Numbered from the stretch's first letter, positions 8,266 to 27,159 are shown. The stretch is DNA of 58,336 bases from Patescibacteria group bacterium (GCA_041667185.1 JBAYFM010000010.1:1-58336); one strand, 5' to 3'. A program made the numbers and translations. The notes: a model not told the origin generated them from the sequence alone.

Positions 8266-8299
8266 GCAGATGTTCCGGCTCGTCAGCCGTCAGAGATGA

Positions 8300-10201: not shown

Positions 10202-10208
10202 AGTGTGA

Positions 10209-10904
10209 TCAGACCGTGGACGCGTTATCGCTCACGCGCAATTTATCGGTGTCGCTCATCTTCTCGGAATCGAAAGTTTCCGGATTATAGACCCGATAAT
10301 AGAGCTCGATGAGGCTCTGGGTGTCGAGCTGTTGGGATTTCAGGCCCATGCTGTTCAGCGCGCTCTGCATATGCTCGACGCGGAGCATCAGCTGCTGTTT
10401 GCGCTCCTGGAAACGCTTCTCGGCGAGCCGCACGGACAGCGCGGGCGAGATCGCGTCCTGCAGCTGCGCGAAAAATCCCTTGCGCTTGTCGGACAGCGGA
10501 TTGTACGGCACGACCACGAAGAACTGCTTCTGCATGATCTGTCCGAGATCGATGAGTTCCTTGATGAACGCGCGGTATTCGGAGATCTGCATCCGTAGCA
10601 GGTCGTTCTGCTGTTCCCGTTCGGCCGCCTGCAGGCGTTCCAGATATTTGTCGATGTTCAGGCGCCGCGACTGGATGACGATCTGCAGCGGATACTCGAG
10701 CGAGTTCAGGAAAGCGACGTACTGGGCGATGACCGCGTTCTGCTCGTCCTCGGATTTGAGGGCGAAATTGATGCTGGCGACCATGATGACGGCCCGAAGC
10801 GTGCCATCGCGCATGATGACGATGTCCTCCTTGATCTCGGCAATGTCGATGTAACGCTGGGTGGCCGGACCCGGTTTCGGACCGGCCAATTTCTGGGACT
10901 GCAT
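10209..10904 (-). CDS. stand-alone protein resembling the N-terminal domain of Gram-positive VirB4 (TcpF/Orf16-type)
   Basis: 231 aa. DIAEIKEDIVIMRDGTLRAVIMVASINFALKSEDEQNAVIAQYVAFLNSLEYPLQIVIQSRRLNIDKYL matches the I..I..d.i....G....v..v..iNF.L.S..Eq..i...f..fL..l..p.Qi pattern. No P-loop is present. Confidence 0.7.
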   Translation of the reverse strand: MQSQKLAGPKPGPATQRYIDIAEIKEDIVIMRDGTLRAVIMVASINFALKSEDEQNAVIAQYVAFLNSLEYPLQIVIQSRRLNIDKYLERLQAAEREQQNDLLRMQISEYRAFIKELIDLGQIMQKQFFVVVPYNPLSDKRKGFFAQLQDAISPALSVRLAEKRFQERKQQLMLRVEHMQSALNSMGLKSQQLDTQSLIELYYRVYNPETFDSEKMSDTDKLRVSDNASTV

Positions 10905-10910
10905 AGGACT

Positions 10911-11348
10911 CTAGTCTTCCGGATTATAGACGCCGCCCGTGTTCACGATGAGCGACAGTTCGTTCAGCTTGGTCGTGCCCAGCGCCTCCTTGTAGATCCT
11001 CTTTTTGGGCGGCAGGGGCGGCGGAACCCTGACGATGAAATTCAACTCGGCATCGGTCAGGTTCTTGTCCCAGGCCCGCAGAGCCGGCCGCCGCAGCGTC
11101 TGGACCAGATTGAGCAGAAAAAAATGGAACGGTTGGCCGTTGACCCGGAAAAAAGCCAGGGTGCCGCCGATGAGAAGCAGGGCGATGGCCACGACCAGGA
11201 ACAGGCTGAAATCGAAGAGCTTGTAGGCCAGGAACTGAAAAAACGCCATTGCGAGCAGGATCACGAATTGGCGCGTAGTGACCGGCCCGATGATCTTATC
11301 CTCCACCTCGATGAATTGCGGCACGGTGTACTTCATGACGTCTTCCAT
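10911..11348 (-). CDS. PrgI family (VirB3-like) small membrane protein
   Basis: 145 aa. KYTVPQFIEVEDKIIGPVTTRQFVILLAMAFF followed by two TM segments is the typical PrgI layout. It lies immediately upstream of the VirB4-type genes. Confidence 0.75.
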   Translation of the reverse strand: MEDVMKYTVPQFIEVEDKIIGPVTTRQFVILLAMAFFQFLAYKLFDFSLFLVVAIALLLIGGTLAFFRVNGQPFHFFLLNLVQTLRRPALRAWDKNLTDAELNFIVRVPPPLPPKKRIYKEALGTTKLNELSLIVNTGGVYNPED

Positions 11349-11386
11349 TATATCACAACCCCGCAGGACGGTCGCACGACCCCGGA

Positions 11387-12685
11387 TCAGCCGAAGCGGA
11401 GCTTCCGATTAAGCTCCATGATGGCATCGAATTCCGCTTTGTTGAGCACATTTTCGCCCTTGGATTCCTTCTCGGCGATGATCTCCATGATCGGCCTTCC
11501 TTCAAGGCTGGAGCGCAATAATTCAAGATAAAGGCGGTTAGCCTCCGATTCCTGCCAACCCCTGATGCCGGCCGTGCGTTTTTCGAACGACTCTTCTTTG
11601 AGCAGGTCGATCTTATCGGTGATCTTCAGGGTCGCTTCATGCGGATCGCGCGACAGGCGGCGGAAGTCCTTGATGGTCATGGCGCGCAATTCTTCGACCG
11701 GACCGAGGAGTTTGGAAGCGAATTTGACGTCAGAGACCACCGGCTTGATCTCGGTCAGAGCCGGAATCTGGACCTGCGCTGGCGCCGCTGGTTCGGGAGT
11801 CGGCGCTTCCTCTGCCCGGACGACCGGCAATCCCGGCGGCGGCGGAGCTTTGGCTGCCGAGGGTACCAATTCGATATTGATCGTTTCGGGCTCGGCGGAA
11901 ACAGCGGGATGAATGGCCGCGGCATCGACCACCGTGATGATCTTCGGGGTCGAGGGCACGGCTGGCTGGACCGGGAACGGCGGCGCTGCGGCAGCGGAAC
12001 CGGATCTCTGGGTGATCTCCGAGAAACGACGCTCCAGAGTCTCGACCTCTTTCGTCTGCGCCTGCTCGGAGACGTTCAGGACCTTTTCCGCCTGCGTCGC
12101 GAGATACCGCTGTCTCGCCGCATCATTGGCCGACTGGATCAGGCCGCGATAAGCGGCGACCTTGGCTTCGAGCAGCGCCATGACGCGGTCAGCCTCGGCA
12201 TCGTCGAGTCCCATGCCGCCGGAGCCGCGGGACATCGTGAGCTTGGACCTGGTCTCGAGCGCGTCGCGCAGATCGCGGAAGAACAGGTTCACAGCGGTCT
12301 GGTATCTTTTTTCGAGATCGAAATCATTGAGCCGGACGCCGCTGGCTTTGACCGCGTCCGCGACCGCCGCGTCCAGACAATCGGCTTCCGAGGCCATGCC
12401 GGATGAGTCGGCTTTCTGCTCGGCACGGGCGGTCTCTCCGGCCGCGATGAGATCGGCGGAATCGAACTTCGAAACATCGGGTTTCTTTTCGACGACTGAC
12501 GTCGGCAAAGCCGTGGCGGGAACAGTTGCCGCCGCCGGCAGTTGATCCGCGCCGTCCGGCGATGCGGAAACAGCCAGTGCGGTCGTCTGATCGCCCTTGA
12601 TGACGCGTCGGGGCTGGTTCTTGCTGACGACGATGATCTCGTCGTCATCCAGACCGAACGATCGATTGCTGGCGTTGTCGGCCAT
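11387..12685 (-). CDS. hypothetical protein (Ala/Pro-rich, coiled-coil-like) of the T4SS-like operon
   Basis: The ORF track gives 11387..12745. The ATG at 12685 (MADNASNRSF...) starts 10 nt after the upstream stop at 12696, so I prefer it. I recognise no motif. Confidence 0.65.
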   Translation of the reverse strand: MADNASNRSFGLDDDEIIVVSKNQPRRVIKGDQTTALAVSASPDGADQLPAAATVPATALPTSVVEKKPDVSKFDSADLIAAGETARAEQKADSSGMASEADCLDAAVADAVKASGVRLNDFDLEKRYQTAVNLFFRDLRDALETRSKLTMSRGSGGMGLDDAEADRVMALLEAKVAAYRGLIQSANDAARQRYLATQAEKVLNVSEQAQTKEVETLERRFSEITQRSGSAAAAPPFPVQPAVPSTPKIITVVDAAAIHPAVSAEPETINIELVPSAAKAPPPPGLPVVRAEEAPTPEPAAPAQVQIPALTEIKPVVSDVKFASKLLGPVEELRAMTIKDFRRLSRDPHEATLKITDKIDLLKEESFEKRTAGIRGWQESEANRLYLELLRSSLEGRPIMEIIAEKESKGENVLNKAEFDAIMELNRKLRFG

Positions 12686-12695
12686 AGATCTGTGG

Positions 12696-13982
12696 TTAGA
12701 CTTCCACCGGTTCAAGCCATTTGAATATCCCCTCGTCCGCGTCAAAAGCCGCGAGTTCAGCGTCTGCCGTCAACAGATTGTTCTTTTTCAGCAGATTATA
12801 AGCTCGCAAACCGAACCGGGCGGAATCATTCTCGGTCAGTCCGGCGAAACCGCGCAACAGCATTTGCATGAAAAAATTGAAGAAGCGCGTCTGGTAGGGA
12901 TCGATCTCAAGCATCGCCGCCCCGTCCGCGTTGCCGGCCGCCAGACGATCGGCGACCAGGTTGCGCAAGCGCTTGTCCTTGGCCAAAACATCCCACAGCG
13001 TGCCTGTCTGGGCCAGCGCCATGATCGCGGACACGACCTCCAGCCGGTCAACAGCCTTCCCCTCTTCCGGGAAAAGCTGGATGAAAAGCCAACCAGCCAG
13101 ATCCTCCGGCTTTCGGCCAGCAGTATCGAAAATATTCTGGATGTGCCGGGCGAGATCAGCCTGTTCTTCGGGCGCGCCGGCATAGATGTCACGGATCATT
13201 TTCGGCGTGAACCTGGGCTCGGCCGCCGCCGCAGCGGAAACCGGCGGCACGATATCTTCGATGAAGACGGTCGCGTTCAACTCATCATGAATGGCGTCCA
13301 GGATCCGCTCGGCATCTTCCGAAGCCAGGTCGAGCCCGCCGGTCTTCACCGGTTTCATCAGCTGTTCCTTGATCTGAGTGTCGGTCCGGACCGCGCGCAG
13401 ACGCGTTTCGATGAGATGCTGCAGGCGCACGCTATCGAACTGGGGCGGCAGGAATTTGGCGGCCTCAGCGGAGATCTGGCGGGCGCCAGCGTCATAACTC
13501 ATGAGCTGCAACGCCAGTTTCTCCTGCGGAAAAACTGCCGGATCAACCTTCAAATCCCTGATGAACCCATCGACATCGCCGATATAGCCGCTAGCCGGCA
13601 AAAACAATTGTCCAGCGATCTCGACCGCCAGTTTATCCAGTCGCTCCCGGTCGGACCATTTGAGACGTTCGGCCAACAGGCCATGGAATTCCTTGAACGG
13701 CCGGGTGCGGAAAAAAATGGCGTTGATGACGCTGACCATGGCGAAGATCTCATCGCTCGCCAACTGGAAGTCAGTCGCGACCTTCTCGAACCTGGCATCG
13801 GTCGACGGCGACAAGAGATATTCCCTGATGGCGGCCGGAGCTTTCTCCAGCAACTCGAAAAAATCCGTGTCCGGCGCTGGCGGCGCCGGCTCGGCCGGCA
13901 GCGGCGACGCTGAAACAGCGGCTGATCCGGGAATCGTCCCGGCCGCGCCCGCTGCTCCGGCTTTTACTGTCTCCTCAGACAT
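12696..13982 (-). CDS. hypothetical protein of the T4SS-like operon
   Basis: 428-aa ORF with ordinary amino-acid composition. The competing plus-strand ORF 12597..13913 is Arg-rich, as expected for antisense reading. Confidence 0.7.
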   Translation of the reverse strand: MSEETVKAGAAGAAGTIPGSAAVSASPLPAEPAPPAPDTDFFELLEKAPAAIREYLLSPSTDARFEKVATDFQLASDEIFAMVSVINAIFFRTRPFKEFHGLLAERLKWSDRERLDKLAVEIAGQLFLPASGYIGDVDGFIRDLKVDPAVFPQEKLALQLMSYDAGARQISAEAAKFLPPQFDSVRLQHLIETRLRAVRTDTQIKEQLMKPVKTGGLDLASEDAERILDAIHDELNATVFIEDIVPPVSAAAAAEPRFTPKMIRDIYAGAPEEQADLARHIQNIFDTAGRKPEDLAGWLFIQLFPEEGKAVDRLEVVSAIMALAQTGTLWDVLAKDKRLRNLVADRLAAGNADGAAMLEIDPYQTRFFNFFMQMLLRGFAGLTENDSARFGLRAYNLLKKNNLLTADAELAAFDADEGIFKWLEPVEV

Positions 13983-14006: not shown

Positions 14007-16811
14007 CTAAGCGCTCTTGACCCGGCCGGCGGCTGAAGCTCCGGCGATACCTTTGGGAGCCGCTTTCTGGATTATCTGTTTGGACGCTTCCTGCGCCCTC
14101 GCGATCCTCTCCATCATGATCTTGATCTCGGCCTTGAACTCATCACTGTCGTGGCCCAGGCTGGGACGCATCTTTTCGACCAGTTTGGCGGCAATCTCGG
14201 CCGGATCCTTGATCGCGGCGATTCCCTGCGCCGCCTGCATCATGGCCGGATTTTTCGCCTCGGCCATCTGGTTGACCGTGGTAGCGTCAATATTGGTGAC
14301 GAGCTCGATGGCCACCTCGTTCACGCCGCCGCCAGCCGTAAGCACGGAGGGACTGATCGAGGCCGCCAACTCGGCCGCTTGCGCCGGCGACTCTTTGGCG
14401 CGTTCACGGAATTGCGCCCGTCCTTCGTCGGCATAGCTGCCGCTGAAATTACCGCTCGGGTTGAGCGAGAAATTCTCCAGCGTCCGGCTTTGCAGGGCGG
14501 CTTTCAACACGCTGGCCTGCCCGATGCTGTCCGGATTCTTGGCCAGTTCGTTGATACCAGACAACTTCAAGCCGTCGGCGATCTGTTTGGACAACTCGAC
14601 ATTCTTACCCAGAGCTTCAGCGTCGACCTTGGCCACTTGTTCAGTGGTCAGGGCGCGTCCTTTCTTGTTATCAGCCAGGGCCGACAGCACCGCCGGGGTC
14701 AATTCAGCCCCGTCGATCGCGGCCACCTGCGCGTTGCTCATCTTGCTGTTGATGGTCGGCAAGAGCTCCTGTTCCCGCTGTTTCAGATACCGCTGTTTTT
14801 CCTCGGACTCAAGACCGGCAGCCAGGCTCTCGCCGCTTTTCCTGTTCAGAAACGCGTTGATCTTGCCAGTGACATCCGTACCGGCGAAGTCCAAAGCCTT
14901 AGTCAGGGCTTTCGGATTCATCTTGGCCATCACATCGTCTGTCAGATCATCCTTGTTCATTTCACCGATCTTCTGAGGCGACAGGCTGCCGACGACCGAT
15001 TCGAAAGCCCGGCCATCAGTCTTAACGATGTCCATTCTCTCTTCTTCCGCTTTCGAAAGCTGGCCAGCCGCTTTCTTCTTCTCCAGATCCTGCCATTCTT
15101 TATAATTGGCGGCGGCGGCGGCCGGACGGGTCCTGATGGCTTTCCAGCGATCGCCGATATAGCTCGGATCATCCTTGACGAACGCTGAATGCTGATCCAT
15201 GGCTTCTTTAACCTTGGCGGTATTGCCGGAGATCAAAGCGGCAGACAGTTCATTCTTGGCCACAGCCGCAGCCCGAGCCCGACCAGCAGGTGTCAACCTG
15301 CCTAATTTACCCATCACAGCCTGAACCCGACCAGCAGGTGTCAACTTGCCTGATTTATCCACTGTGCCCGTGCCCATGGAAGCAGCGTATTTCTGATACT
15401 CCGGCGGCAGACCGCCAATCTCTTTCTCCGCCCGCGATCTGATTTCCGCGGACTTGGCCCGGGAATCGATCAAAGCTCTTTTGGCCAAGCCACCGCCCAT
15501 AAAAGACGGCAACCTCATGGCCTGGGCCAGACCAGCCTCTTTCAATTTATCCAGACGACCGCCACTCAAGTTATCAGCAGTCACGGCAACACCCCTGCCA
15601 GCCCTGAGGCTCATGCGACCGGCTTTCTGAGCGTATTTCGTCGCGCCCTGGCGGATCTGCTTGGCCATGCCCATGGTCTCGCCGGCCATCTCGGTCGCCA
15701 TCGTGTAACCGCCGAGCAGCAGACAGACGCCGATCATGAACTGCTGGACGCTCTGACTATTGAAAGCCGCTGAAACCTCGTCGCTGAAACTCTCCTCCTC
15801 GTTGCGCGCCGGAAAACCGGCGGTCACGTCGCCCTGCTGGACGACGGCCAGCGACAACCACAGGAAGAAAGCCAGGAACGGCCCCACGATCACGTTGCTC
15901 GTGAACTTGGACCACCACTTGCCGTAGAAACCCGAGGCCGCGCCGCCAGGGACCGCCTTCAGGAAGAACGCGAGCGGCGACAGGACGACGAGCAGCCACA
16001 GGAAAACGATGCGGACGATGAGAGTGATGGTCATCATGATGACCACGAAGGTCGCGATCGCCGTCATGACCACGGCGAGCAGCATGGACACGACGATGGC
16101 CGTGGTCGAAGCGTCGGCCCCTTCGCTCTTCGAAGAGTCCGAGGCCTGCATCATCTCGGTGATCTTCATGGCCTCCATGAAGTTGCCGCCGGCGGCATCC
16201 TTGAAGCCGCTCACGAAGGTCAGCATGACCACCTGGCCGAAATCGATCATGATGCCGCAGAGCGTGCGGGAGAAATTGATGACGATGGCCATGATCAGGA
16301 GGCGCGTGAGCTTGCCGCCCTTGATGCTGTAGTTGTCCATCCCGAGGATGGTCGCGAACGCCATGATCAGGAGGACCACGATGAAGAACATGTTGACCAC
16401 GTCCCGGAGGATCGACCAGCCGAGGCCGACCGCCGGCGACGTGACGAACGAGTTGTACTGAGCGACGTTGACGAGCACGCCCACGACGATGAGCAGCACC
16501 GAGGCTAGCAGCCAAATGATGAGCTCACTGGCGTAACCGATGATGACGACGACCATTTTCTCAATGGGATCTTTCGCGGCATAGACAGAGCTCGCCGACC
16601 AACACAAACCGACGACGACGATCGCCGCGACAGCCAGCATCGCGTAAGCATCGCGGCCGCGGGGGCGCGCAGCATAAAGTTCCGCCGCGCGGGAGCGAAG
16701 CCGGCCGATCTGGGTCCGGATACCGTTCAGTTTTGAGGCGATCATATGGCTCTGGTTCAGGGTCAACTTTACGGCACTTCGATCTTGATCTTGCCGTAAG
16801 CCCAGGTCCAC
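14007..16811 (-). CDS. polytopic membrane protein, VirB6/TrbL/PrgH-like by topology and position, with a ~540-aa hydrophilic C-terminal extension
   Basis: Multiple hydrophobic segments in the first ~390 aa (e.g. VVVIIGYASELIIWLLASVLLIVVGVLV, FFIVVLLIMAFATILG, IVVSMLLAVVMTAIATFVVIMMTITLIVRIVFLWLLVVLSPLAFF), then a Lys/Ala-rich soluble tail. An alternative start at 16745 (MIASKLNG) would remove the overlap with the giant gene. Confidence 0.7.
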   Translation of the reverse strand: MDLGLRQDQDRSAVKLTLNQSHMIASKLNGIRTQIGRLRSRAAELYAARPRGRDAYAMLAVAAIVVVGLCWSASSVYAAKDPIEKMVVVIIGYASELIIWLLASVLLIVVGVLVNVAQYNSFVTSPAVGLGWSILRDVVNMFFIVVLLIMAFATILGMDNYSIKGGKLTRLLIMAIVINFSRTLCGIMIDFGQVVMLTFVSGFKDAAGGNFMEAMKITEMMQASDSSKSEGADASTTAIVVSMLLAVVMTAIATFVVIMMTITLIVRIVFLWLLVVLSPLAFFLKAVPGGAASGFYGKWWSKFTSNVIVGPFLAFFLWLSLAVVQQGDVTAGFPARNEEESFSDEVSAAFNSQSVQQFMIGVCLLLGGYTMATEMAGETMGMAKQIRQGATKYAQKAGRMSLRAGRGVAVTADNLSGGRLDKLKEAGLAQAMRLPSFMGGGLAKRALIDSRAKSAEIRSRAEKEIGGLPPEYQKYAASMGTGTVDKSGKLTPAGRVQAVMGKLGRLTPAGRARAAAVAKNELSAALISGNTAKVKEAMDQHSAFVKDDPSYIGDRWKAIRTRPAAAAANYKEWQDLEKKKAAGQLSKAEEERMDIVKTDGRAFESVVGSLSPQKIGEMNKDDLTDDVMAKMNPKALTKALDFAGTDVTGKINAFLNRKSGESLAAGLESEEKQRYLKQREQELLPTINSKMSNAQVAAIDGAELTPAVLSALADNKKGRALTTEQVAKVDAEALGKNVELSKQIADGLKLSGINELAKNPDSIGQASVLKAALQSRTLENFSLNPSGNFSGSYADEGRAQFRERAKESPAQAAELAASISPSVLTAGGGVNEVAIELVTNIDATTVNQMAEAKNPAMMQAAQGIAAIKDPAEIAAKLVEKMRPSLGHDSDEFKAEIKIMMERIARAQEASKQIIQKAAPKGIAGASAAGRVKSA
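15278..15357 (-). repeat. in-frame 48-nt tandem duplication inside the VirB6-like gene
   Basis: cccgaccagcaggtgtcaac[c/t]tgcct[a/g]attta occurs at 15278-15309 and 15326-15357. It encodes GKL(G/S)..TPAGR twice. Confidence 0.75.
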
Positions 16812-19800
16812 GGCGCCTTCTCAGAAGGCTTCGTGGTAGTGGTCGTGAGGTTGCCGAAACAATCATTGCCCTCCACGTCGTTATTCCGGTCCGTGTTGAG
16901 GCAGAAATTGTCGCCGTCGGTCTTGACGCACGTGCCGTTGCAGACGCCCCAATTGTCCGTGAACTGGACGCGCGGGCGGAAGACGCAGTAATTACCTTCC
17001 TTGCAGGGATACGTCTCTTCGTCGACCAGGTTGCTGCAGGCCGGCAACGAGTCGCGGTACGGCGTGTTGCAGACGTAGGTCTTGGCCTCCTCGAAATACC
17101 GCGGATCGCACGTGTCGTCGGTCAGGCCCCAGTATTTGCCCCAGTCGGCGTAATCCGAGCTGCAGATCTTCTTGAGATTCGCGGCGGCGACGGGGCCGTT
17201 GTAGAAGGCGCCGCGGTGATTCTTATAGTAAGCGTCGCCGGAGGGGACGAGTTTGCCGTCGCCGAAGTCGAAGACCTTGCGGCGCAGCGGCATCTGATCC
17301 TTGTCGGCGTAGGCGTAATACCTGATCTTGACCGTCAGCCGTCCGCCGCCGTCGGCGCCCTGGATGATGTCGGTGCCGGCCGAGGTGCTATTGCCGCGGT
17401 CCGAGATCATGGTCAGACCCTCGGTCGCGAGTTCCTGGCAGACTCCTTCTTCGCCGTCGATGCATTTGCCGATGCTCGTGTCGACGCCGACGACCCGCGG
17501 CCGCTTGGAGAACGACGTGAGTCGCGATCGGTCATCCCAACCGCCTGCCGGCTGGTAGGTCAGATCGTTGGAGTTGCCGCCCCAGTGATAGATCTGTTCA
17601 GCGGTCGCGAAGAGTTCCGAGAGCCGGCGTGTCGCGTTCGGCAAAGCGCTGGCGCCATTATTGTTCCAGCTGGCCGGAAGACCGGTTCCGCCGCAGGCGC
17701 CGACGCAAGCATACGGCACGCCGCTATAGGACCGACCGCCGTCGTTCTTATAAGCACTGGCGGCGCTGTTCCAATAGATGTACGTGAACGGGCTGCCGCC
17801 TTCCGTATTGAACACCGGCAGGATCTTCTCGAACGTATCCGGAGCGATGCCGGCGGGGTCGGAACCATAGGTCAGCGCATCGGCATTCTGGGTCGCCGGA
17901 ATCGTGGCGATGCGTCCGAACGGTTCCAGCGATTCGCTGGCGCCGGTGCGGGTGGAGGCGTGGGTGAACGAGTAGCCAGTGGCGACGAACTGGCCGGCTT
18001 TCCACATCCGATCGGTCCAGACGACGCCCGGAGCCACCGGATTATGGACGTAGGCGACGTCGGTGCAACGATCGCGCAGATGGACGGTGATGGTGCCGTT
18101 GTAGACCGGGTTACAGGACCAATTGTCGTTATGGCACATCGTGGTCTTGAAACCATCCAACTTCTTATCAGCGGTCCAGATCGGCATGATGCCCACACAA
18201 TCGCGATCGTTCTGGCCGTTGTTGTCGGCGGACCAACGATCGCACCAATCCGCAACCTCATCATTAGTGCCTTCGGTCAGCAGGTTTACGCAGATCGACC
18301 TGGCCTGGCCGCCGGAAGCCGGAATACCTTCATCGGATTGAGGCGGCCAATCGTTAGCCGGCTGATGGCCCGGCGCGCGTGTTTCCGTGCCTTCCCAAAT
18401 TCCGGCTTTCGGATGCCGCTTGCCGCCGGTGTCATCATCTTCCCAATCAATCGCTTTGCCGTTGAAATCAGGACCGGTCATATACAAGGTGACCAGACCA
18501 CTGGAGCTGGGTGCGCCCTGGCTGCACAAAGATTCATTGCAGGCCGTGCCGCCACAGAGGCTGGCATTCGGACACTTGCCGTCATTGGTCAGTGTTCCCT
18601 GGTCAGGATCCGAACCGCAATCGCGGGTGCAATCCGTCGGCTGCCGGAATTTAGTGCCGTCAGCGCAAACCCAGCGGGTACAACCGGCGTTACCGGAACA
18701 AGTCTGAGACCTCGTCCCATAATTGGAACAGGTCGACGCGGTCGGATTGCAGCCAGGGTTGAAATCCACCTGGATGCCGGCGATCTGATCGCGGCTGATC
18801 TGCGGCGCCCAATCACGGATCAATCGGCCGCCTTCGCCGTTGGTCAGGTAAAACAGATGTTTGTAATTGCCGCTGGCGGAGCCGGTGTATTGCCGGCTAG
18901 CGGAATATCCCTGACCAGCGACCTGCGTGCCCTCGGCGACAGCGCAATAGGACAGAGCGCTGGTCTGCTGGTAGCCGGCCTCCCGGAACTGGTTGAAACG
19001 ATCCGGCATGCCGGACAGCTTGTCCACCGGCAACCACATGATGCAGGCGCGCCGGGCCTCGTCGTTGTTGATGATCAGCGACTCGTCGTAATCCAGGCAG
19101 AAGCCCGGCCAACCGAGCAGCGTCGAGACCGACTTGAGCTTCTGGCACTGGCCCTGGCCGTCGACGCAGGCCGCCTTCAGACCGGGATCGATCGCGCCGG
19201 AACCCAGATCGCAGGGTTTGCCGTCCTCGGAGCCGCCGACGCACAACGTCTTCGCGAAGCCGCGCTCATAAGTCGCGTCCTTGACGCCGAGGTAGCGCTT
19301 CTCGCCGTAATTCGTGCCGTAGGTCAGTTTCTGATAGGCGCACTCGCAGTCATTGCCGTTGCCGTGGCAGATATTAGCGCCGGCGAAATCAGGCGACCGT
19401 TCGGCTTCCACGCCGGAAGCGGTCCCGGTGGCGGCGTCATAACCCGCCTGGCCCTTAAGTATGATGGTCGAAGAGTAGGGCGAATCGACCTCCGGATAAG
19501 CCCGGCAGAGTGGCATCGCGCCGACGTCGTTGCGCAGCAGCGGACCGCCGGTGTAGTCGTAGTAGCAGAGGTGCTGGTAGCAGCGGCCGCCTTTGTTCGA
19601 AGCGCCGAAATCCGGATCGATCTTCTGATCGACGCAATCGCTCGAGATGCCCGATCCGCTGTCGTCGTTGGGCCGGCAGGTCAGGGCGCAGGAACCGGAG
19701 ACGCCGCCGCAATCCTTGTCGTTGGTGCAGAGCTCGCCTTTCTTGGCGCCGCTCTTGCACAGCGCCAGATTGACGCCGTAGCGCTGCTGGGTCATTTCGG

Positions 19801-22800
19801 TCTTGGAGCACCAGGCTTTCGAGCCGCAATCGGCGTCCGTGGCGCAGGCGACGCCGTACTTGTTGATGTCGCCCATGCAGCTGCCGCTCTTGTTACCGGT
19901 CACTGTCGGCATGGTGGCCGGCAGCAGGTACTGAGCCGGGTAAGCATTGGGCACGCTGTAACCGGAGAACTCCAGACCCTTCCAGGAAACATCGCGCTGG
20001 GCGTACTGCTGGTTCGTCAGCCGCGATTTCTCCGGCTCGACGTAGCTGCGGCACTCGCTCGCGACGCCGACGACGGTCGACTCCTCGCACAAGCCGAAAC
20101 CAGTGCAGGATTCGCGCCACTCGCCCTTGGTCTCATCCCAGGTGATCTCCGACTCGCGGCAATTGAGCCAGCGGGCGCACTCGCGGTCCGGACGGACCTT
20201 GAGCACGATGTTGGCGTCATTGCGGGTGAAGTCGACCCCGGTCAGGCTCCGGCGGCAGGTCTTGCCGGACGGACAGGTCGCCGGATCGCCGTAGGTCATG
20301 CATTTCTCGCCCAGCTGGGAGCTGCAATCCCGATCGGAGCGGCAGCCGAAGCCGTAGCTCTCGGTCCCGATGCAGCGTCCGACGCCGCAATCGGCATCCT
20401 GGTTGCAGGCCTGGCCCAGAACCGTGATGTCCTCGCAGGTGCCGTTGACGTAGCTGAAGCAGCGGCTGCCGCACAGCTCGTCGGAACGGTTCGATAGGTT
20501 GCAGTTGACCGGGCTGGCGCTCATATCGCCGGCTTTGACGTACGAAGCGGCGGCGGAATAGAGGTTCTGCGGATTACTGGTCTGCTTGAGCGCGACGCAG
20601 CCGGTCTTGAGATCGACGTTGCCGCCGCAGGTGGACTGATCGATCTTGCTGTTGAATATATAATAGTAAGGTTCGCCGGCGGCGTGATTCGGCGAGGTCG
20701 CCACCGTGTCGACGAATTCCTCGCAACGGTCGTACTCGGCCGCGCACAGACCGACCCAGCCGTCAAAGCCGCAGACGCTGTTGCCGCGCATGACCCGGCA
20801 GGCCTGTTCGACCTTGCAGGTGGTCTTGGTATTGCCGACCGTGCAGGAATTCTGTCCTTCGTTCGGGCAGGCACAGCCTTCGGGTTTGGTGCAAGCCGAC
20901 GCCAGGGTGCAATCCGGAGAATCCGGACTGGTGCTCAGATAGCACGGGCAGCCGGCGTCCTGGGTGCACGGCGTCTTCAGGTCGCAGCGCTGGTCCTTAT
21001 TCTTGGCGATGGCATAGAACTCGCCGTTCACGAGCCGGTCGCCGTAACACGGCAGCAGGGCGCCGCTCTCGGTCTTCCGGAACCAGCCCGAGACCCGGCG
21101 ATCCTTCACGAAGACGTTCTCCCGGTATTCGCAGGCGCGGTTGCCCGGATCCTTGAAGTAGTAGGAACCGTCGCGCGTCGAATACTGGGCGCAGCCGACC
21201 TCTTTCTCCAGACACAGGGTCTTGGAATAGTCGGCCGGATTATCCTTGACGGCCGCGGCTTTCCAGCTCCCGATGATCGGCTCGGAGACGGAGTACTGGC
21301 AGCGCGATTCGCCGATCTTGATCTTGCAATAACCCTTGGTCTTGGGATCTTCGCAGCCGGTCTCGGCGCTCACCGGCGTCTCTTTGTTCGCGACCCGGTT
21401 GACACACACGCCGTCAAAGGCCTGGTTCGGGACGCCGACGGTGCGACAGCCGATGTTCGCGGCTTCGCATTTGTCCTGAGGAGTCACGACGAGATGGGTC
21501 AACGAATCAGCCGGCACGACCACGATATCCGGATTGGCGGCGCGGGACGCCAGCGACGCCCGGGTCTCCAGGTTGAATTTCGTGATGCGGCACTCGGTCT
21601 CATTGAACGCGACGCGACAGGCGTCGAACAGCATCAGCGGCGCTTCGGCAGAGGCGGCCGCGTGCGGCAATCTGTAATTACAGATGCAGTTCGTACCGCC
21701 GTCGGCCGGAGCCTCGGGGCTGCCGCAGCGGGCCGGCAGGCTGCAGACAGCGTTGAACGATTCTTCGTAAGGATTCTCGACCGTGTTCTTGGTGTCGGAG
21801 TAAGCGGAGCAGCCGACCACCTTGTCGCGGCACAGCTTGCTGAACGAACGCAGGTAGCTGACCTTGCCGGCGGTGTTGCGGTATTCGCGGCAGCCGAGCA
21901 TTTCCCGCGGCGACGCCGCGCCCGCGAGCGTCTGGTCGCAGGAAGCGGGGATCTTCCAGGAATCGCGGACCACGCTGATCGTGTCGCGGACCTCGTTCAA
22001 AATGAGATTGTCGAGATAGACCTCGCCGATCGTGACGACCGGAGCGGCCGCGGACCCCGCAATGCTGAACTTCAGACAACGGCCGTTCGGACAATCCGGA
22101 CCGGCAACCACGGTCTCCTGGAAAATGACCGGACCGAGGGCGTAACGGCGCCACTCGCTGGTCAGGATGATCTTCGGCGCGGACTTGGTCGCGTTGTTGT
22201 CGTCGCTGAACACCTGGGTGCCGGCGCCAGTCTCGGAGCCGAAGCTGATGTTGAGGATACCGCCGCCGCGAGCCCAGAACGACAGGCTATAGGATTGGCC
22301 GCCGGTCACGAGCGTTCCCAATTCCCGCACGATCTCGCGCCTGTCGGTCGCCGTGCCGGAGAGTTTGAGCGAGTGTCCGCCGACGACCAGCGCTTCCGAC
22401 GATTGCGCCGGGATCGCGGTGCCGGCTTTCCAGACGGCCGCGTCGATCGCCTGTTCGAACGCGTCGGTGAAAGCGGCGCGGATGTTCGAAGCGGCATTGC
22501 CTTTGTAGGCCCGGCAGCCCTTGGAAGCCGCCGCGCAAGCCAGGCTGTCGCCGGCCGAAGCGGCGTAGATGCATTCCTGTTTCGCTTCGTTCCAGGAGCC
22601 GTTCGAGTCGCGGCAATCAGACTCGATCGAACCAGTGATGCGATAGCGCCGGCAATCCGCCGCAGCCACGATGACGCGCGACATCAGCCGGTAATGGCGG
22701 TTGCCGAACTCATCGTAAAATTCGCGGCAATCGTAATCATGGCCGGCATCAATGGAATCACGGGTGCAGAAACCGTCGGGCAGTTCCGCGCCGGCGATCG

Positions 22801-25800
22801 CCACGGACTCGTCCAGACACTCGAACCGGTCATCGCCGACTGGGGCCGCGGTGTTCAGGTGGACGCAGGGCGAGTAGCCGCAAGTTCCGCCGGCGGTCGG
22901 CGCGCAGACATCACTCGCGGTGGCGGCGGCCGTAACGATCTGGGCTTCGGTCCGCTTCAGGTTCCAGACCTTCAGCTGATAGCCGGCCGTGTCCGAACCT
23001 TCCCAGGAATAGAACACCTGGTTGGTGTCGGCCTCGGGTTTCTGGCAGATGCGCAAACGGGAATAATAGCTGCGCTGCTCGTTCTCCAGATCCGTGAACT
23101 CCGAACAGCCGATCTCGGCCTCGGAACAGGACTGGGCCAGTTTCGGAATGAAGTAGATCGGGAATTTGGAAGCGCGTTCGAATTCGGACGCTTCCTGTTT
23201 GAAGACGTCGTAACCGGAACATTCCGCCGGACAAGCGTCCTGCGGTCCGACGACGCCGGGAATGGCCGGATCGGCGGTCGCAGGAGTATAGCGGTCGCAA
23301 CCGACCTCGTTGTCGCGGCAGACCATCGCGAAGCTCTTGCATTCCGCGCGGTCGCCGTCCTCGCCGGTGCAGCCGAGATAGTTCGGAGCGACTTTGGCGT
23401 AAACCAGTGATTCGACCTCGCCGTAAGTATCGTGGTAAGAGACGCCGCCGCCCTCGTTCAACAGGACGCCATCAACCATGGTCTGGGCGCCGCTGATCTC
23501 CAGGTAAGCGCCGGCGATGGGCCGACTCACCGTGAACGTGCACGACGGGCGGACGTAAGCGGCGTCCGACAGAGCCGGGTCCGTCGCCGCGGTCAGGGTC
23601 ATGAAGAGGCCGCCGGCCGGAGTGAAGTCGCACGGACCGACGTTGGGGGTCACGATGACGTCATCATTCTTCACCCAACCAGCCATGGAGGCCGACTGAT
23701 TATAATCGGACTGGTAGAACTTGAGCCGCAGCGTCGCGCTGGCGGCGCCCGGTCCTGGGACCAAAGCGGCCGGGATCTGCCGCAGGTCGGCGGACAGCGT
23801 ATAGGTCTTGCCGATCTCGAGCGGCAGCCGATCCTGGATCAGACGATTGGTGAGCGAACAGCTGGTCTCGCCTTTGGCGACCGCGCAGCTGTAGCCGCCC
23901 TTGGGGCAGGTGCAGGAAGGATAATTCGCGCAGGCCGTATTCAGCGTGCAGACATCCTCGTAATCGCCTCCGACCCGGGCGGCATTCGAACCAGCGGAGG
24001 CATAGAACTTGTTGTCCGCGCCGCGTTCAGTGATGATCCCGCCAGCGCCGCCGACCGTCACTTTGCCGAAAGGCGACCAGTACTTGGCGTGATCACTGGC
24101 CCCGTCGGCATCCATATCCTCGAGCGTCTCGAAACTGCCGTTCTTGACGAGATTCAAAGACTGGCCGGCCGCGAGCTTCACGAGAGCGGTGCAGCCGTTC
24201 TTGTCCGCCGAACAGCCCTGAGCCTGTTTGTTGAGATAAAGAGCCGGGGTGATCTGCCAATCATCGCCGGCTTCGGGACCGCCGACGATAGTGCTGCAGG
24301 ATCTGGCGCCCGACACGACCAGACAGGAAGAATTCTTGGAACAGTCGCACTCGGCGGTCTGACAGACATTGGGCAGCCGGCACTGCTCGCCGCTCGGCAG
24401 CAGCAGACAGGTCTTCTCGCCCTGACCGACCTTGCACGAACGAGGTATCGTGCAGGAACACCCGGCGCTATTCGAACACACGGCGCCGAGAGTGCAGCTG
24501 CCGGCGTTCAACCTGGTCGAGTACGCCCGACAGCCTTCATTCGAGGAATTGCACACGCCGTAATCAAGAGTGTTGACTAGGAAATTTTCGGTCTTGCCGG
24601 ACGTGCTCTTGAACGTGCGGCAGGAATTATAATATTCAGGGCAGGAATCGGCGTTGAACCGCCAGACGCGCCGGTCCTGAGTGCAGTAACCGTAACCGCC
24701 GACGCACTGGCCGAAATCGTCCTCTTTGAGACAGGTGGCCACGTCCGTGCAGGTCTCGGCGCGAGTGGCGATCCCCGCGCTGAGCAGCACCGGTCCGTAA
24801 ACCTTGGCGCGACATTCGGCTGACGGCGCTTTGAGGACCCAGTTGGGATCAATGAGATGGCACCACTTGGTGGCCGGATTGGCCGCGTCGGGTGCGCCGT
24901 TCACGCCGCAGACATTGAAGCCGGCGACGACCTGGCCCAGCGTCACTTTTTCTCCGGTCGCGGCGACCTTGCTCGCGGCGATCTCCCAGCCGATCGGGAT
25001 GATCCGGGCCGCGCGCATCTTCTTGAGATTCGTCTCGCAATAACCATCCTGATAGCAGGAAGCCTTGGCGTTATCCTGGCTGGTCGCCGGGATCAGCCGG
25101 AAATCCTTGTGCAGCAGATCCTGTTTGAGGGCTTCGCCGACGGTCAGCGGGATGGCGTTGCCGGAACGGATCGCGACCGCGAGCGCCTGATCCATCACGC
25201 AATTCTCCGGACCGCGATATGCCTCGGGACACAGACCGAACAAGGTGACTACGTCATACATGCCGGTTCCCTTGATCGGCGTCGCCCGGATCAGCGACGA
25301 GGGAGCCTCGATCTCCCCGATCCGCTCGCTGCTCTGAACGAGACCAGGATTCACCAGTGATTCGCGGTCCAGCAACGCGACCTCCGTGGCCGCCTCTTCG
25401 GCAGCCATGAGCGACAACAGTTCCTGAACGCCCTTGTTCCAGAATCCCTTGATCAGGGTCATGGCGAAAGTCTGGACCATGCCGCCAACGATCGGCTTCC
25501 AGGCCTTGGCAGCCAAAGCTCCCGATGCCGCCATCTGCACCCCCGTATCCGGAATGACGCCGCTCTTGTCCTTGTAGAGGTCGAATTCTTTCTTCGCGAC
25601 CGCCGCCGGACTGAGTACATTGCCGGTCACGGGATCGGTGATGTCCGAAAAACCGCCGCCGCCGGCGTATTTATTGGCGACTTTCAAACTCTGTTCCAGA
25701 TAAGCCTTGGGTTGGACATCCACCTGGATGAACGAACCCATCCGTAAACCGGCTGACAACGGCGATTTGCCCGGCTTGACCGTATCCTTCAACATCTTCA

Positions 25801-26407
25801 TCATTTCGCCTTTGGAGAACTGATTGCCGACCTTGCCCCAGCTCTCGGCGATCTTGGACAGGTCGCACTTGGGCCGCGGCGGCTGGATCTCGTCAAGCAG
25901 ACCGAGCTGGAGATTCAAAGTGAGATTGATGTTCGGCGCACAAAGATTCAGCCCCATTGCCGTCAAACCGGAAGCTTCGCTGAAAGCCCCGATCGCCTCG
26001 CCCGCCGCGCCGGCGACGGCATCTTTCAAGCCTTTGGAAAATTCCTTGGAATCGAAGCAAGGTTTTTGACCGGCGCAATTCAACAGGTTCTGCGCCAGCA
26101 TGCTCGCGACCTGCTGAGCGAACTGATTAGTGGCGCTGACCGCGGCCACCATGACGCCTTCAGTGAGACCTGTGGTGATCTGATCGAAAACGGAGGCGGA
26201 AACAGTGGTGGGTCCGCCGATGACATCAGCCGCCTGCGCCCGGACCGGACGCGGAAACGCCAACATGAACGGCAACGCCGCCGCGAAAGCGAAACCAAAC
26301 ATCAAGATGGCGGAGGCGGCCCTGGATTGACGTGAGTTCATGTTGATCCGGATTAATTTAATTTGCGACGCTGGCGGCTGCTGGCTGAGGCGACGTCTCC
26401 GGATCAT
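16769..26407 (-). CDS. giant (3212-aa) secreted Cys-rich protein
   Basis: Uninterrupted 9.6-kb ORF. N-terminus has RRRR plus the hydrophobic segment AASAILMFGFAFAAALPFMLAFP. Cys modules recur (e.g. CSNSAGCSCTIPRSCKVGQGEKTC, CANYPSCTCPKGGYSCAVAKGETSC, CTQDAGCPC..., CTKPEGCACPNEGQNSCTVGNTKTTC). At least 9 GC.(A/x)(Y/L)-type motifs are present (GCRAYS, GCSAYS, GCAQYS, GCDRYT...). A C-terminal FDFGDG segment is PKD-like. The ATG at 26407 overlaps the upstream TGA (ATGA); an alternative ATG is at 26341. Confidence 0.85.
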   Translation of the reverse strand: MIRRRRLSQQPPASQIKLIRINMNSRQSRAASAILMFGFAFAAALPFMLAFPRPVRAQAADVIGGPTTVSASVFDQITTGLTEGVMVAAVSATNQFAQQVASMLAQNLLNCAGQKPCFDSKEFSKGLKDAVAGAAGEAIGAFSEASGLTAMGLNLCAPNINLTLNLQLGLLDEIQPPRPKCDLSKIAESWGKVGNQFSKGEMMKMLKDTVKPGKSPLSAGLRMGSFIQVDVQPKAYLEQSLKVANKYAGGGGFSDITDPVTGNVLSPAAVAKKEFDLYKDKSGVIPDTGVQMAASGALAAKAWKPIVGGMVQTFAMTLIKGFWNKGVQELLSLMAAEEAATEVALLDRESLVNPGLVQSSERIGEIEAPSSLIRATPIKGTGMYDVVTLFGLCPEAYRGPENCVMDQALAVAIRSGNAIPLTVGEALKQDLLHKDFRLIPATSQDNAKASCYQDGYCETNLKKMRAARIIPIGWEIAASKVAATGEKVTLGQVVAGFNVCGVNGAPDAANPATKWCHLIDPNWVLKAPSAECRAKVYGPVLLSAGIATRAETCTDVATCLKEDDFGQCVGGYGYCTQDRRVWRFNADSCPEYYNSCRTFKSTSGKTENFLVNTLDYGVCNSSNEGCRAYSTRLNAGSCTLGAVCSNSAGCSCTIPRSCKVGQGEKTCLLLPSGEQCRLPNVCQTAECDCSKNSSCLVVSGARSCSTIVGGPEAGDDWQITPALYLNKQAQGCSADKNGCTALVKLAAGQSLNLVKNGSFETLEDMDADGASDHAKYWSPFGKVTVGGAGGIITERGADNKFYASAGSNAARVGGDYEDVCTLNTACANYPSCTCPKGGYSCAVAKGETSCSLTNRLIQDRLPLEIGKTYTLSADLRQIPAALVPGPGAASATLRLKFYQSDYNQSASMAGWVKNDDVIVTPNVGPCDFTPAGGLFMTLTAATDPALSDAAYVRPSCTFTVSRPIAGAYLEISGAQTMVDGVLLNEGGGVSYHDTYGEVESLVYAKVAPNYLGCTGEDGDRAECKSFAMVCRDNEVGCDRYTPATADPAIPGVVGPQDACPAECSGYDVFKQEASEFERASKFPIYFIPKLAQSCSEAEIGCSEFTDLENEQRSYYSRLRICQKPEADTNQVFYSWEGSDTAGYQLKVWNLKRTEAQIVTAAATASDVCAPTAGGTCGYSPCVHLNTAAPVGDDRFECLDESVAIAGAELPDGFCTRDSIDAGHDYDCREFYDEFGNRHYRLMSRVIVAAADCRRYRITGSIESDCRDSNGSWNEAKQECIYAASAGDSLACAAASKGCRAYKGNAASNIRAAFTDAFEQAIDAAVWKAGTAIPAQSSEALVVGGHSLKLSGTATDRREIVRELGTLVTGGQSYSLSFWARGGGILNISFGSETGAGTQVFSDDNNATKSAPKIILTSEWRRYALGPVIFQETVVAGPDCPNGRCLKFSIAGSAAAPVVTIGEVYLDNLILNEVRDTISVVRDSWKIPASCDQTLAGAASPREMLGCREYRNTAGKVSYLRSFSKLCRDKVVGCSAYSDTKNTVENPYEESFNAVCSLPARCGSPEAPADGGTNCICNYRLPHAAASAEAPLMLFDACRVAFNETECRITKFNLETRASLASRAANPDIVVVPADSLTHLVVTPQDKCEAANIGCRTVGVPNQAFDGVCVNRVANKETPVSAETGCEDPKTKGYCKIKIGESRCQYSVSEPIIGSWKAAAVKDNPADYSKTLCLEKEVGCAQYSTRDGSYYFKDPGNRACEYRENVFVKDRRVSGWFRKTESGALLPCYGDRLVNGEFYAIAKNKDQRCDLKTPCTQDAGCPCYLSTSPDSPDCTLASACTKPEGCACPNEGQNSCTVGNTKTTCKVEQACRVMRGNSVCGFDGWVGLCAAEYDRCEEFVDTVATSPNHAAGEPYYYIFNSKIDQSTCGGNVDLKTGCVALKQTSNPQNLYSAAASYVKAGDMSASPVNCNLSNRSDELCGSRCFSYVNGTCEDITVLGQACNQDADCGVGRCIGTESYGFGCRSDRDCSSQLGEKCMTYGDPATCPSGKTCRRSLTGVDFTRNDANIVLKVRPDRECARWLNCRESEITWDETKGEWRESCTGFGLCEESTVVGVASECRSYVEPEKSRLTNQQYAQRDVSWKGLEFSGYSVPNAYPAQYLLPATMPTVTGNKSGSCMGDINKYGVACATDADCGSKAWCSKTEMTQQRYGVNLALCKSGAKKGELCTNDKDCGGVSGSCALTCRPNDDSGSGISSDCVDQKIDPDFGASNKGGRCYQHLCYYDYTGGPLLRNDVGAMPLCRAYPEVDSPYSSTIILKGQAGYDAATGTASGVEAERSPDFAGANICHGNGNDCECAYQKLTYGTNYGEKRYLGVKDATYERGFAKTLCVGGSEDGKPCDLGSGAIDPGLKAACVDGQGQCQKLKSVSTLLGWPGFCLDYDESLIINNDEARRACIMWLPVDKLSGMPDRFNQFREAGYQQTSALSYCAVAEGTQVAGQGYSASRQYTGSASGNYKHLFYLTNGEGGRLIRDWAPQISRDQIAGIQVDFNPGCNPTASTCSNYGTRSQTCSGNAGCTRWVCADGTKFRQPTDCTRDCGSDPDQGTLTNDGKCPNASLCGGTACNESLCSQGAPSSSGLVTLYMTGPDFNGKAIDWEDDDTGGKRHPKAGIWEGTETRAPGHQPANDWPPQSDEGIPASGGQARSICVNLLTEGTNDEVADWCDRWSADNNGQNDRDCVGIMPIWTADKKLDGFKTTMCHNDNWSCNPVYNGTITVHLRDRCTDVAYVHNPVAPGVVWTDRMWKAGQFVATGYSFTHASTRTGASESLEPFGRIATIPATQNADALTYGSDPAGIAPDTFEKILPVFNTEGGSPFTYIYWNSAASAYKNDGGRSYSGVPYACVGACGGTGLPASWNNNGASALPNATRRLSELFATAEQIYHWGGNSNDLTYQPAGGWDDRSRLTSFSKRPRVVGVDTSIGKCIDGEEGVCQELATEGLTMISDRGNSTSAGTDIIQGADGGGRLTVKIRYYAYADKDQMPLRRKVFDFGDGKLVPSGDAYYKNHRGAFYNGPVAAANLKKICSSDYADWGKYWGLTDDTCDPRYFEEAKTYVCNTPYRDSLPACSNLVDEETYPCKEGNYCVFRPRVQFTDNWGVCNGTCVKTDGDNFCLNTDRNNDVEGNDCFGNLTTTTTKPSEKAPWTWAYGKIKIEVP

Positions 26408-27084: not shown

Positions 27085-27112
27085 GCGAGTTGCGCTTAAT
27101 CGTTCCTATACA

Positions 27113-27142
27113 ATTATAACACGGGCTCAGACCCGCGTCCAA
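27113..27142 (-). promoter_or_regulatory. near-consensus sigma70-type promoter of the T4SS-like/giant-protein operon
   Basis: Minus strand reads TTGGAC gcgggtctgagcccgtgt TATAAT (18-nt spacer). It lies 18 nt after the rsmA stop and ~30 nt before the first ORF. Confidence 0.55.
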
Positions 27143-27159
27143 GGTAAATTAAGGGGGTT

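Follow-up and report, generated by a model that had tools for sequence, protein, structure and literature searches.

The giant gene and its locus

The window analysed here is the complete 58,336-nt stretch JBAYFM010000010.1:1-58336 from a Patescibacteria group bacterium (GCA_041667185.1). It is a housekeeping segment of the chromosome, encoding NusA, Wzy_C, GroEL, a release factor, an epimerase, Sua5, a major facilitator superfamily protein, KsgA, ArgRS and TyrRS. On its minus strand, positions 16769-26407 form one unbroken open reading frame (ORF) of 3,212 codons, hereafter the giant gene, which corresponds to about 1% of a ~1-Mb genome. The single 9.6-kb ORF proposed in the initial annotation of this DNA is confirmed, free of any interruption. 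The encoded protein contains 170 cysteines (5.3%) and little histidine (0.7%). It belongs to a large and unnamed protein family, is predicted to be exported, and is encoded directly behind a smaller gene with TSP3-type Asp repeats (the partner gene). These two genes head an array of ten co-directional genes that runs from 27084 to 6914 with gaps of 62 nt or less, in the order TSP3-like partner, giant, extended VirB6, two proteins of unknown kind, PrgI/VirB3, TrsD/TraC-like, VirB4, a 215-residue transmembrane protein and a ComFC-like protein.

The true start of the giant gene is probably the ATG of M23 and not the first in-frame ATG, which overlaps the stop of the partner gene as ATGA (26407-26404). 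M23 is favoured because the database gene call and the N-termini of the homologues agree on it: the annotated protein (P0001, 3,190 residues) begins there, and the n-regions of its homologues are 10-20 residues long. A start at M23 leaves a 62-nt gap to the partner gene and no overlap. The ATGA reported in the initial annotation is therefore present in the sequence, while the upstream translational coupling that had been read from it is doubtful; an RRRR stretch ahead of M23 is, by the same reasoning, probably untranslated. At other loci the partner and the giant are separated by 0-78 nt or overlap by 1 nt. On the downstream side, the TAA is followed after 23 nt by the ATG (16745) of the VirB6-like gene; the initial annotation had given this spacing, with an overlap as its alternative. 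A weaker promoter-like site (TTGACT-16-AATGAT, 26403-26430, minus strand) lies over the end of the partner gene, ~55 nt 5' of the M23 ATG, and is compatible with M23 as the real start.

A large and unnamed protein family

An initial search returned 21 collinear homologues of 2,300-4,466 residues at 27-42% identity, the named ones being Candidatus Uhrbacteria. An exhaustive search of 1.84 billion cluster representatives with a profile of residues 385-640 then recovered 1,150 representatives of 50%-identity clusters, 1,060 of them at E<=1e-30. The best 150 of these 1,150 are mostly ~2,600-4,500 residues long and nearly all carry the core at residues ~350-650; the shorter ones among them are probably contig fragments. 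In GTDB contigs, with one genome per species, at least 568 genomes encode a relative of the giant, and the median length of complete ORFs at the related loci is 3,125 residues (n=56). In a word-indexed search, the full-length profile gave the same proteins again and the N-terminal-domain profile gave none.

Among the matches listed, the GTDB titles comprise Uhrbacteria, Magasanikbacteria, Falkowbacteria, Parcubacteria SG8_24, "Patescibacteria group" and placeholder labels. All named relatives among them fall in the candidate phyla radiation (CPR), as Patescibacteria of the Uhrbacteria, Magasanikbacteria or Falkowbacteria type, lineages that we take to be GTDB class ABY1. Some metagenome-assembled genomes with the giant locus (L001/L027, which is DATJFD010000076.1; L021; and many with CAZ or CAY names) are labelled as other taxa, including Binatia, Eisenbacteria, Methylomirabilis, Vicinamibacterales, Acutalibacteraceae and "uncultured Gammaproteobacteria". 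These labels probably reflect mis-binned contigs or placeholder taxonomy.

The family carries no annotation in any library searched. No entry in Pfam (whole protein, and ten segments at E<=5), NCBIfam or PHROGs explains the giant, the only signal being a weak one to CBM4/9. Sequence searches of the PDB with the single sequence and three sub-profiles gave no match except an SRCR-like half-motif, and full-text literature searches found no paper describing the family. The initial annotation had recognised no named adhesin or toxin family, and this judgement holds, with Pfam, NCBIfam, PHROGs, PDB and Foldseek together yielding only weak CBM4/9 and jelly-roll signals.

It had also raised the concern of an assembly error, which about 1,000 collinear relatives exclude. 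The chance that the gene is an artefact of assembly or annotation, be it a chimeric or collapsed repeat or a fusion of ORFs, is negligible: the gene contains no tandem or dispersed DNA repeats, its GC content is the same as that of its flanks, and collinear ORFs of equal length, with 39 invariant Cys, are found in hundreds of independent assemblies.

Predicted export through Sec

The giant is predicted to be exported by the Sec pathway, with a cleavable signal peptide and no second membrane segment. From M23 the protein reads MNSRQSR, AASAILMFGFAFAAALPFMLAF and PRPVRA↓QAADV, which is the n-h-c layout of a signal peptide, with a basic n-region, an h-region and small residues at -3 and -1. Residues 29-53 are the only strongly hydrophobic stretch of the chain. 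The assignment rests on the -3/-1 rule and on family conservation: an N-terminal h-region is present in 118 of 123 full-length relatives, [AVS]xA follows it in 112 of the 123, and the family consensus is P-x-P-A-x-A-Q. A further strongly hydrophobic 19-mer occurs in only two of these 123 relatives, and neither a C-terminal hydrophobic tail nor an LP.[TSA]G motif was found in the giant. Where the initial annotation had seen an anchor or signal in the RRRR stretch and the hydrophobic segment, the signal is upheld and the RRRR probably lies outside the protein. A twin-arginine translocation (Tat) signal based on RRRR was considered and rejected, since the Arg run precedes the h-region by 27 residues and probably the start codon as well.

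Cysteine architecture

Cysteine conservation was assessed in an alignment of 22 family members, a position being called conserved when Cys is present in at least 80% of them. By this measure, 83 of the 170 cysteines of the giant are conserved. The 87 invariant columns include 39 Cys and 16 Gly, with no His and no Lys; invariant residues are nearly all Cys, Gly or aromatic, and no catalytic motif is found among them. A motif scan of the giant for HExxH, GxSxG, PAAR, RTX, YD and LPxTG was equally negative. The Cys count is even in 82% of relatives.

The conserved element is a Cx6C hairpin with the consensus C-x3-[ENK]-x-G-C-x-x-[YF], which is the "GC.(A)Y" motif of the initial annotation. Nine such hairpins are invariant (619/626, 732/739, 1030/1037, 1094/1101, 1291/1298, 1526/1533, 1647/1654, 1732/1739 and 1888/1895). 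Motif counts were compared with 2,000 shuffles of the giant sequence. GC..[YLF] occurs 10 times where 2.1 are expected, which bears out the earlier remark that such motifs are spread along the chain, and C-x5-GC-x2-[YF] occurs six times against an expectation of 0.06; neither count was reached in any shuffle. The same is true of the five-Cys CxC pattern (four observed, 0.05 expected, 0/2,000 shuffles), and the four strings first cited as recurring CxC modules are indeed present, at residues 644, 682, 826 and 1839. They do not represent core architecture, however. The six-Cys CxC knots (C-x5-C-x4-5-C-x-C-x5-7-C-x8-C; residues 638-667, 676-704, 820-850 and 1808-1879) are lineage-specific insertions, because they fall in low-occupancy alignment columns and only 33 of the 123 relatives have them, in one to six copies.

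Profile-profile self-comparison aligns residues 978-1060 with 1465-1556 (90%) and residues 605-668 with 1634-1704 (92%). This shows ancient duplications, within the giant, of an ~80-residue "LGC ... Cx5GC..Y" unit, visible at the profile level only. The repeat detection proposed in the initial annotation revealed nothing beyond these duplications, as self-BLAST, TRF and direct-repeat scans found no repeat array in the giant.

Domain organization

Along the chain, a conserved N-terminal part of ~2,500 residues is followed by a hypervariable region (residues ~2500-2960) and a conserved, beta-rich C-terminal domain (Table 1). Structural models of residues 55-1160 and 2050-3212 were generated with AlphaFold2 from alignments of 21 sequences. 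The N-terminal domain (residues 60-384) has no PDB or Pfam match. The core that follows it holds the first Cx6C hairpins (568, 589 and 619) and an SRCR-like motif of 50 residues, and its first part (residues 385-524) was modelled with a predicted local distance difference test (pLDDT) score of 70-87. In the family profile, residues ~494-545 align with the first half of each of the four SRCR domains of PIT54 (PDB: 9h0m), with a summed E-value of 9.4e-6, single stretches at E 4-960 and Pfam SRCR (PF00530) silent; this likeness may be taken as a lead only.

The whole giant scores 20.9 bits against Pfam CBM_4_9 (cutoff 25.9), and PF02018 is precomputed for five of its homologues. Foldseek searches with the N-terminal model retrieved only jelly rolls, namely the Eph ligand-binding domain, Cry domain III and CBM4, at E 6e-4 to 8e-3. 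This part of the protein is also where a secreted offensive factor has to be weighed, either a pore-forming or membrane-breaching toxin of Cry-like logic or a degrader of the host envelope that frees nutrients. The order of a helical N-terminal segment of ~330 residues and jelly rolls would suit a toxin, a Cry toxin is the top Foldseek match in the PDB (E 5.9e-4), a match probably owed to the jelly roll, and the reliance of CPR bacteria on host-derived nutrients (PMC11665869) counts in the same direction. Yet the helical prediction is of low confidence, TM-scores are 0.06-0.08, neither catalytic motifs nor an invariant pattern of His, Ser or Lys is seen, the C-terminus is conserved instead of polymorphic, and no immunity-like gene lies downstream. 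An offensive role is accordingly regarded as improbable.

The hypervariable region contains large indels in other members of the family, for example in P0018 (4,466 residues). A diversity-generating retroelement acting on this region was considered and rejected: no template/variable repeat pair involves the giant gene, and the annotated ORFs of the window showed no reverse transcriptase. The C-terminal domain carries the motifs MPIRR..(F/W)D(F/W)GDG, YKNHRG and PRV.V.DNWG.C. The FDFGDG segment that the initial annotation had called PKD-like is located at residue 3046, but the PKD assignment finds no profile or significant fold match: residues 2950-3212 have no match to Pfam PKD (PF00801/PF18911) at E<=5, and their Ig-like Foldseek matches are insignificant (best E 0.098). 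A beta-sandwich resemblance to PKD is possible.

The partner gene is the constant neighbour

For synteny, six-frame ORFs of 86 related loci were searched with the neighbour proteins of the window; among the 80 GTDB loci, downstream sequence extends over ~1-3.5 kb in most full-length ones. The partner gene stands immediately upstream of the giant in all 79 testable loci. Its family (80 sequences) has a median length of 230 residues, a transmembrane anchor, two TSP3 repeats (DTDxDGLxDxxE ... DSDxDG) and a CPxGxxC motif. In P0018 and P0020, the most divergent clade, HSP20 and NusA flank the partner-giant pair, and no type IV secretion system (T4SS) lies within 10 kb; the two genes thus travel together, and it is their pairing that is truly invariant at the locus.

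Other neighbours are less constant. KsgA lies within 1.5 kb in 53 of 76 loci. The VirB6-like gene is found downstream in 23 of the 44 loci whose downstream sequence extends to 1.5 kb or more, and in 7 of the 11 with a full 10-kb downstream flank. Of the 23 VirB6-like neighbours, 18 are at ~810 nt or less, and five begin 4 nt past the end of the giant ORF. The initial annotation had suggested checking whether homologues always neighbour VirB6/VirB4; about half do, and the partner gene takes the place of constant neighbour.

The array with type IV secretion genes

The downstream gene is VirB6-like, in agreement with the initial annotation: the protein has 6-7 transmembrane helices and a long hydrophilic tail, and one of six orthologues matches Pfam TrbL/VirB6 (E 3.9e-6). 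A tblastn search of plasmids with its transmembrane domain gave no match. Further along the array, TraG P-loop/VirB4 scores 93 bits, PrgI 35.4 bits (cutoff 27) and TrsD NF041427 E 4e-7. The window cluster unites VirB4, PrgI/VirB3, TrsD and VirB6, the set by which an MPF-FATA-like T4SS of Patescibacteria is recognised. The array contains no pilin genes, and the annotated ORFs of the window revealed no relaxase. The T4SSs of Patescibacteria have been described as MPF-FATA-like and without relaxase, with comF near the ABY1 loci and no PrgB-like adhesin found (PMC12102498), and the array of the window agrees with this description.

A scan of 26200-32700 for promoters gave two sites in all, which is not above shuffle expectation. 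The best on the minus strand, in the gap between KsgA and the partner gene, may mark where the 20-kb co-directional array begins, and the strongest terminator-like hairpin where it ends (Table 1).

That the giant is itself a substrate or a conduit of the T4SS, exported in two steps like pertussis toxin or forming a pilus-like tube that replaces VirB2, is an idea suggested by its position at the head of a T4SS array without pilin genes, and Sec-dependent arrays beside CPR T4SSs have been likened to Ptx/Ptl (PMC7427843). After Sec export, however, a monoderm requires no second step, the family persists without an adjacent T4SS, and a single non-repetitive chain of ~340 kDa is unlike polymerising pilins. 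We consider this explanation very improbable, more so than an offensive role.

Several proteins of the array and its end deserve mention. The 428- and 452-residue proteins (11387-13982, minus strand) are free of Cys and of transmembrane segments. They are conserved together with the cluster, are joined in a single 855-residue protein in one related locus (L006) and match no family. The 215-residue protein (7618-8265, minus strand), directly after VirB4, has one N-terminal transmembrane helix and a globular domain of ~150 residues, a predicted topology as expected of a VirB8/PrgL-like subunit. Its only matches are a sub-threshold one to DUF2749 (Pfam) and an insignificant one to SecG (NCBIfam). 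According to the literature, VirB8 homologues mostly escape detection in Patescibacteria, and class ABY1 accounts for almost all of the few that have been found. Just past ComFC and a tRNA-Ser, where the T4SS array ends, lies a second large exported protein (949-5904, minus strand; 1,651 residues, 32 Cys) with a signal-like N-terminus, Big_7 Ig domains and internal DNA repeats.

Table 1. Coordinates of the giant gene, its predicted domains and the flanking features (positions in the window; residues numbered from the first in-frame ATG of the giant ORF)
Feature	Position	Strand	Remarks
Strongest terminator-like hairpin	6768..6785	-	7 G-C pairs and T-tract, ~130 nt after ComFC; consensus match only
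Rest of array	6914..13982	-	428- and 452-residue unknowns, PrgI/VirB3, TrsD/TraC-like, VirB4, 215-residue transmembrane protein, ComFC-like; gaps <=38 nt
Extended VirB6/TrbL-like gene	14007..16745	-	6-7 transmembrane helices and ~600-residue hydrophilic tail; starts 23 nt after the giant's stop
Giant ORF	16769..26407	-	3,212 codons; likely start ATG 26341-26339 (M23), giving 3,190 residues
C-terminal beta-rich domain, residues 2966-3212	16772..17512	-	Conserved; pLDDT 60-89; no C-terminal anchor
Variable region, residues ~2500-2960	17528..18910	-	Family identity 0.08-0.2; AlphaFold2 pLDDT <35
Conserved disulfide scaffold, residues 1000-1895	20723..23410	-	Cx6C C-x5-GC-x2-Y/F hairpins 1030, 1094, 1291, 1526, 1647, 1732, 1888
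CxC knot cluster, residues 1808-1879	20771-20986	-	Within the disulfide scaffold
CBM4/9-like jelly roll 2, residues ~1300-1450	22058..22510	-	Pfam CBM_4_9 segment E 0.0074
CBM4/9-like jelly roll 1, residues ~745-1000	23408..24175	-	Opens LNLVKNGSFE; Pfam CBM_4_9 E 0.018, sub-threshold
Third CxC knot, residues 820-850	23858-23950	-	Inside jelly-roll domain 1
Two tandem six-Cys CxC knots, residues 638-667 and 676-704	24296..24496	-	C-x5-C-x4-5-C-x-C-x5-C-x8-C; column occupancy 0.38
Most conserved core, residues 385-640	24488..25255	-	41% mean column identity; 14 invariant and 4 near-invariant Cys
N-terminal domain, residues 60-384	25256..26230	-	Moderately conserved; conserved Cys 156 and 181; helical prediction of low confidence
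Predicted Sec-type signal peptide, M23-A57	26237..26341	-	V-R-A↓Q cleavage motif, fits family consensus AxA↓Q
Partner gene, 226 residues	26404..27084	-	N-terminal transmembrane anchor (residues 7-30), two TSP3-type Ca-binding Asp repeats, CPxGxxC
Promoter-like site TGGACG-17-TATAAT with TG	27113..27141	-	KsgA/partner-gene gap; consensus match 10/12

Comparison with known systems

The T4SSs of MPF-FATA type lack pilins, and adhesins provide the cell-cell contact. Like PrgB of pCF10 and other MPF-FATA adhesins, the giant is a large exported protein, encoded in the window with a monoderm T4SS (VirB4, PrgI/VirB3, VirB6, TrsD). It differs from PrgB in having no sequence or fold similarity to it, no LPxTG and neither the PrgB adhesin domain nor Ig-like Csa domains; it is also about three times larger and Cys-rich, and has a T4SS as neighbour only sometimes (23/44 testable loci). 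Transposon sequencing of a cultured Saccharibacterium, Southlakia epibionticum, showed surface adhesins and proteins with lectin domains to be essential (PMC10633639). These adhesins are, like the giant, exported patescibacterial proteins with domains of polysaccharide-binding type, proposed to act at the epibiont-host interface beside an essential relaxase-less T4SS (PMC10633639). They belong to another CPR class, however, and no homology was detected, the giant profile finding essentially only ABY1-type proteins of ~3,000 residues.

The RTX adhesins of type I secretion systems (LapA, SiiE, MpIBP) are, as proposed for the giant, Ca-dependent, non-enzymatic extracellular proteins of several thousand residues, with ligand-binding modules near the distal end. 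They consist of tandem Big-domain arrays with a C-terminal RTX/type I secretion signal and occur in diderms, whereas the giant has an N-terminal Sec signal, no tandem repeats in DNA or protein and no GGxGxD, and the Ca-binding repeats are on its partner. The giant would resemble PrgB, the Saccharibacteria adhesins and the RTX adhesins in role, but the hallmarks of each of these groups are absent from it.

RHS/YD-repeat, teneurin and ABC-type toxins share its size, its predicted extracellular location and the presence of cysteines. An RHS/teneurin-type identity was rejected: the giant has no RHS/YD match in Pfam or NCBIfam, no Y.YD..G[RN] motif, no YD repeats and no RHS core. Nor is there a polymorphic C-terminal toxin/immunity pair, as the C-terminal 250 residues are conserved family-wide and the downstream gene is VirB6-like or housekeeping. 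With CBM4/9 (PF02018) the giant shares two regions of ~150-250 residues with an N-L-V-x-N-G-x-F-E ... W strand start and weak Pfam and Foldseek matches; it nevertheless scores below the gathering threshold, and such domains make up less than 15% of the chain. Predatory Omnitrophota, which are also ultra-small bacteria, reportedly encode exported proteins, known from metagenomes, of tens of thousands of residues, which a preprint is said to regard as acting on other cells. They belong to a different phylum, and the comparison is by description only. Giant exported surface proteins are as such a known kind of bacterial protein.

Proposed role of the giant and its partner

Taken together, these features suggest a surface or adhesion protein without enzymatic activity, which is exported, is held or put together by its TSP3 partner and contacts the envelope of another cell, and which probably serves as the contact arm of the T4SS in the sub-clade of the window. 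For this reading as a whole, the arguments for and against stand in rough balance. Its first part, an exported structural or adhesive protein with a TSP3 partner, is held with more assurance than the whole, and the docking to the T4SS is a tentative step. Following export by Sec and cleavage, the giant would fold extracellularly into an elongated, largely beta scaffold stapled by disulfides. The membrane-anchored, Ca-binding partner would hold it at the cell surface or assemble it there. The lectin-like and variable regions could then contact the envelope of a partner or host cell, making the giant an adhesin or docking arm and not an enzyme or toxin. In the sub-clade of the window, where the pair heads an array with a pilin-less MPF-FATA-like T4SS, it would probably supply the extracellular contact.

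A bolder version of this proposal holds that the TSP3 anchor and the giant form a previously unrecognised extracellular module of the ABY1 T4SS. As such it would form a disulfide-stapled arm of ~340 kDa for Ca-dependent docking, one that replaces VirB2 pili and PrgB-type adhesins and sets host specificity through the hypervariable region and the insertable six-Cys knots. This version is unlikely; if true, it would provide the missing host-contact component of the essential and mysterious T4SS of the CPR.

Several observations weigh against the adhesive reading. About half of the testable loci have no adjacent T4SS, nor does the most divergent clade, and T4SSs also occur in CPR classes without the giant family; the giant is therefore not a core part of the T4SS, and the adjacency could be conserved housekeeping synteny. 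Tethering by the partner is something we infer from adjacency alone. The AlphaFold2 models are poor (mean pLDDT 50 and 47), Foldseek against the PDB and viral libraries gave only weak jelly-roll, Ig-like and tail-fibre-like matches, and these weak signals do not allow the fold to be assigned beyond "beta-sandwich". Both CBM_4_9 matches are below the Pfam threshold. Finally, we know of no cultured ABY1 organism.

The giant could instead be a general structural protein of the envelope, S-layer-like and serving as sheath, spacer or cell-shape protein. With its Ca-binding partner it would be required for an intact envelope, would have no functional relation to the T4SS and would lie next to it through gene order inherited in small genomes of high synteny. 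The gene is present in a single copy at each locus or contig examined, is class-wide and lies within a housekeeping block (GroEL, RF, Sua5, KsgA, NusA, YidC, Wzy_C); no T4SS is nearby in about half of the loci, and the invariant residues are structural. Against such a role, a hypervariable region and lineage-specific knots are typical of proteins facing other organisms, lectin-like domains are present, and the 4-nt spacing to VirB6 recurs in several independent loci. In addition, a protein of ~340 kDa with 85 potential disulfides would be costly as a bulk lattice protein. A purely structural role is hence rather unlikely, though clearly more plausible than a toxin or a T4SS conduit.

Patescibacteria account for much of bacterial diversity, and the family may bear on how they attach to and exploit partners and on the role of their conserved relaxase-less T4SS. 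Pfam/NCBIfam models, metaproteomics, labelling in cryo-electron tomography and host-range inference in uncultured ABY1 could all draw on the targets that the family definition provides: the signal peptide, the core (residues 385-640), the Cx6C hairpins, the CBM-like domains, the variable region and the partner. Should the giant be only a structural envelope protein, the annotation would still be useful and of modest general interest.

Other features of the window

The window also contains an intergenic repeat family of 8-nt periodic units, GGAGTSNN (complement ACTCCNGC), in both orientations. Copies are located at 6225-6291, 32574-32820, 41976-42091, 42815-42986, 44546-44722, 45924-45991, 47252-47322, 57537-57656 and 58171-58336, and all appear to lie between annotated genes. 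At least 10 tandem ACTCCAGC units are found at the contig end, and several copies contain the palindrome CCACGTCGTTCGCGAACGACGTGG. The family could represent a repetitive extragenic palindromic (REP)-like element, a terminator or a regulatory element.

Two paralogous ORFs of ~190 residues are covered by a tandem duplication (37937-38607 versus 38643-39316, 706-nt offset, 70-81% identity). Two adjacent paralogous histidine kinases with sensor domains of seven transmembrane helices (HisKA_7TM) are encoded at 47995-51303 on the minus strand, the second of them in a stretch of low GC content (0.49) within a window that is otherwise at 0.60.

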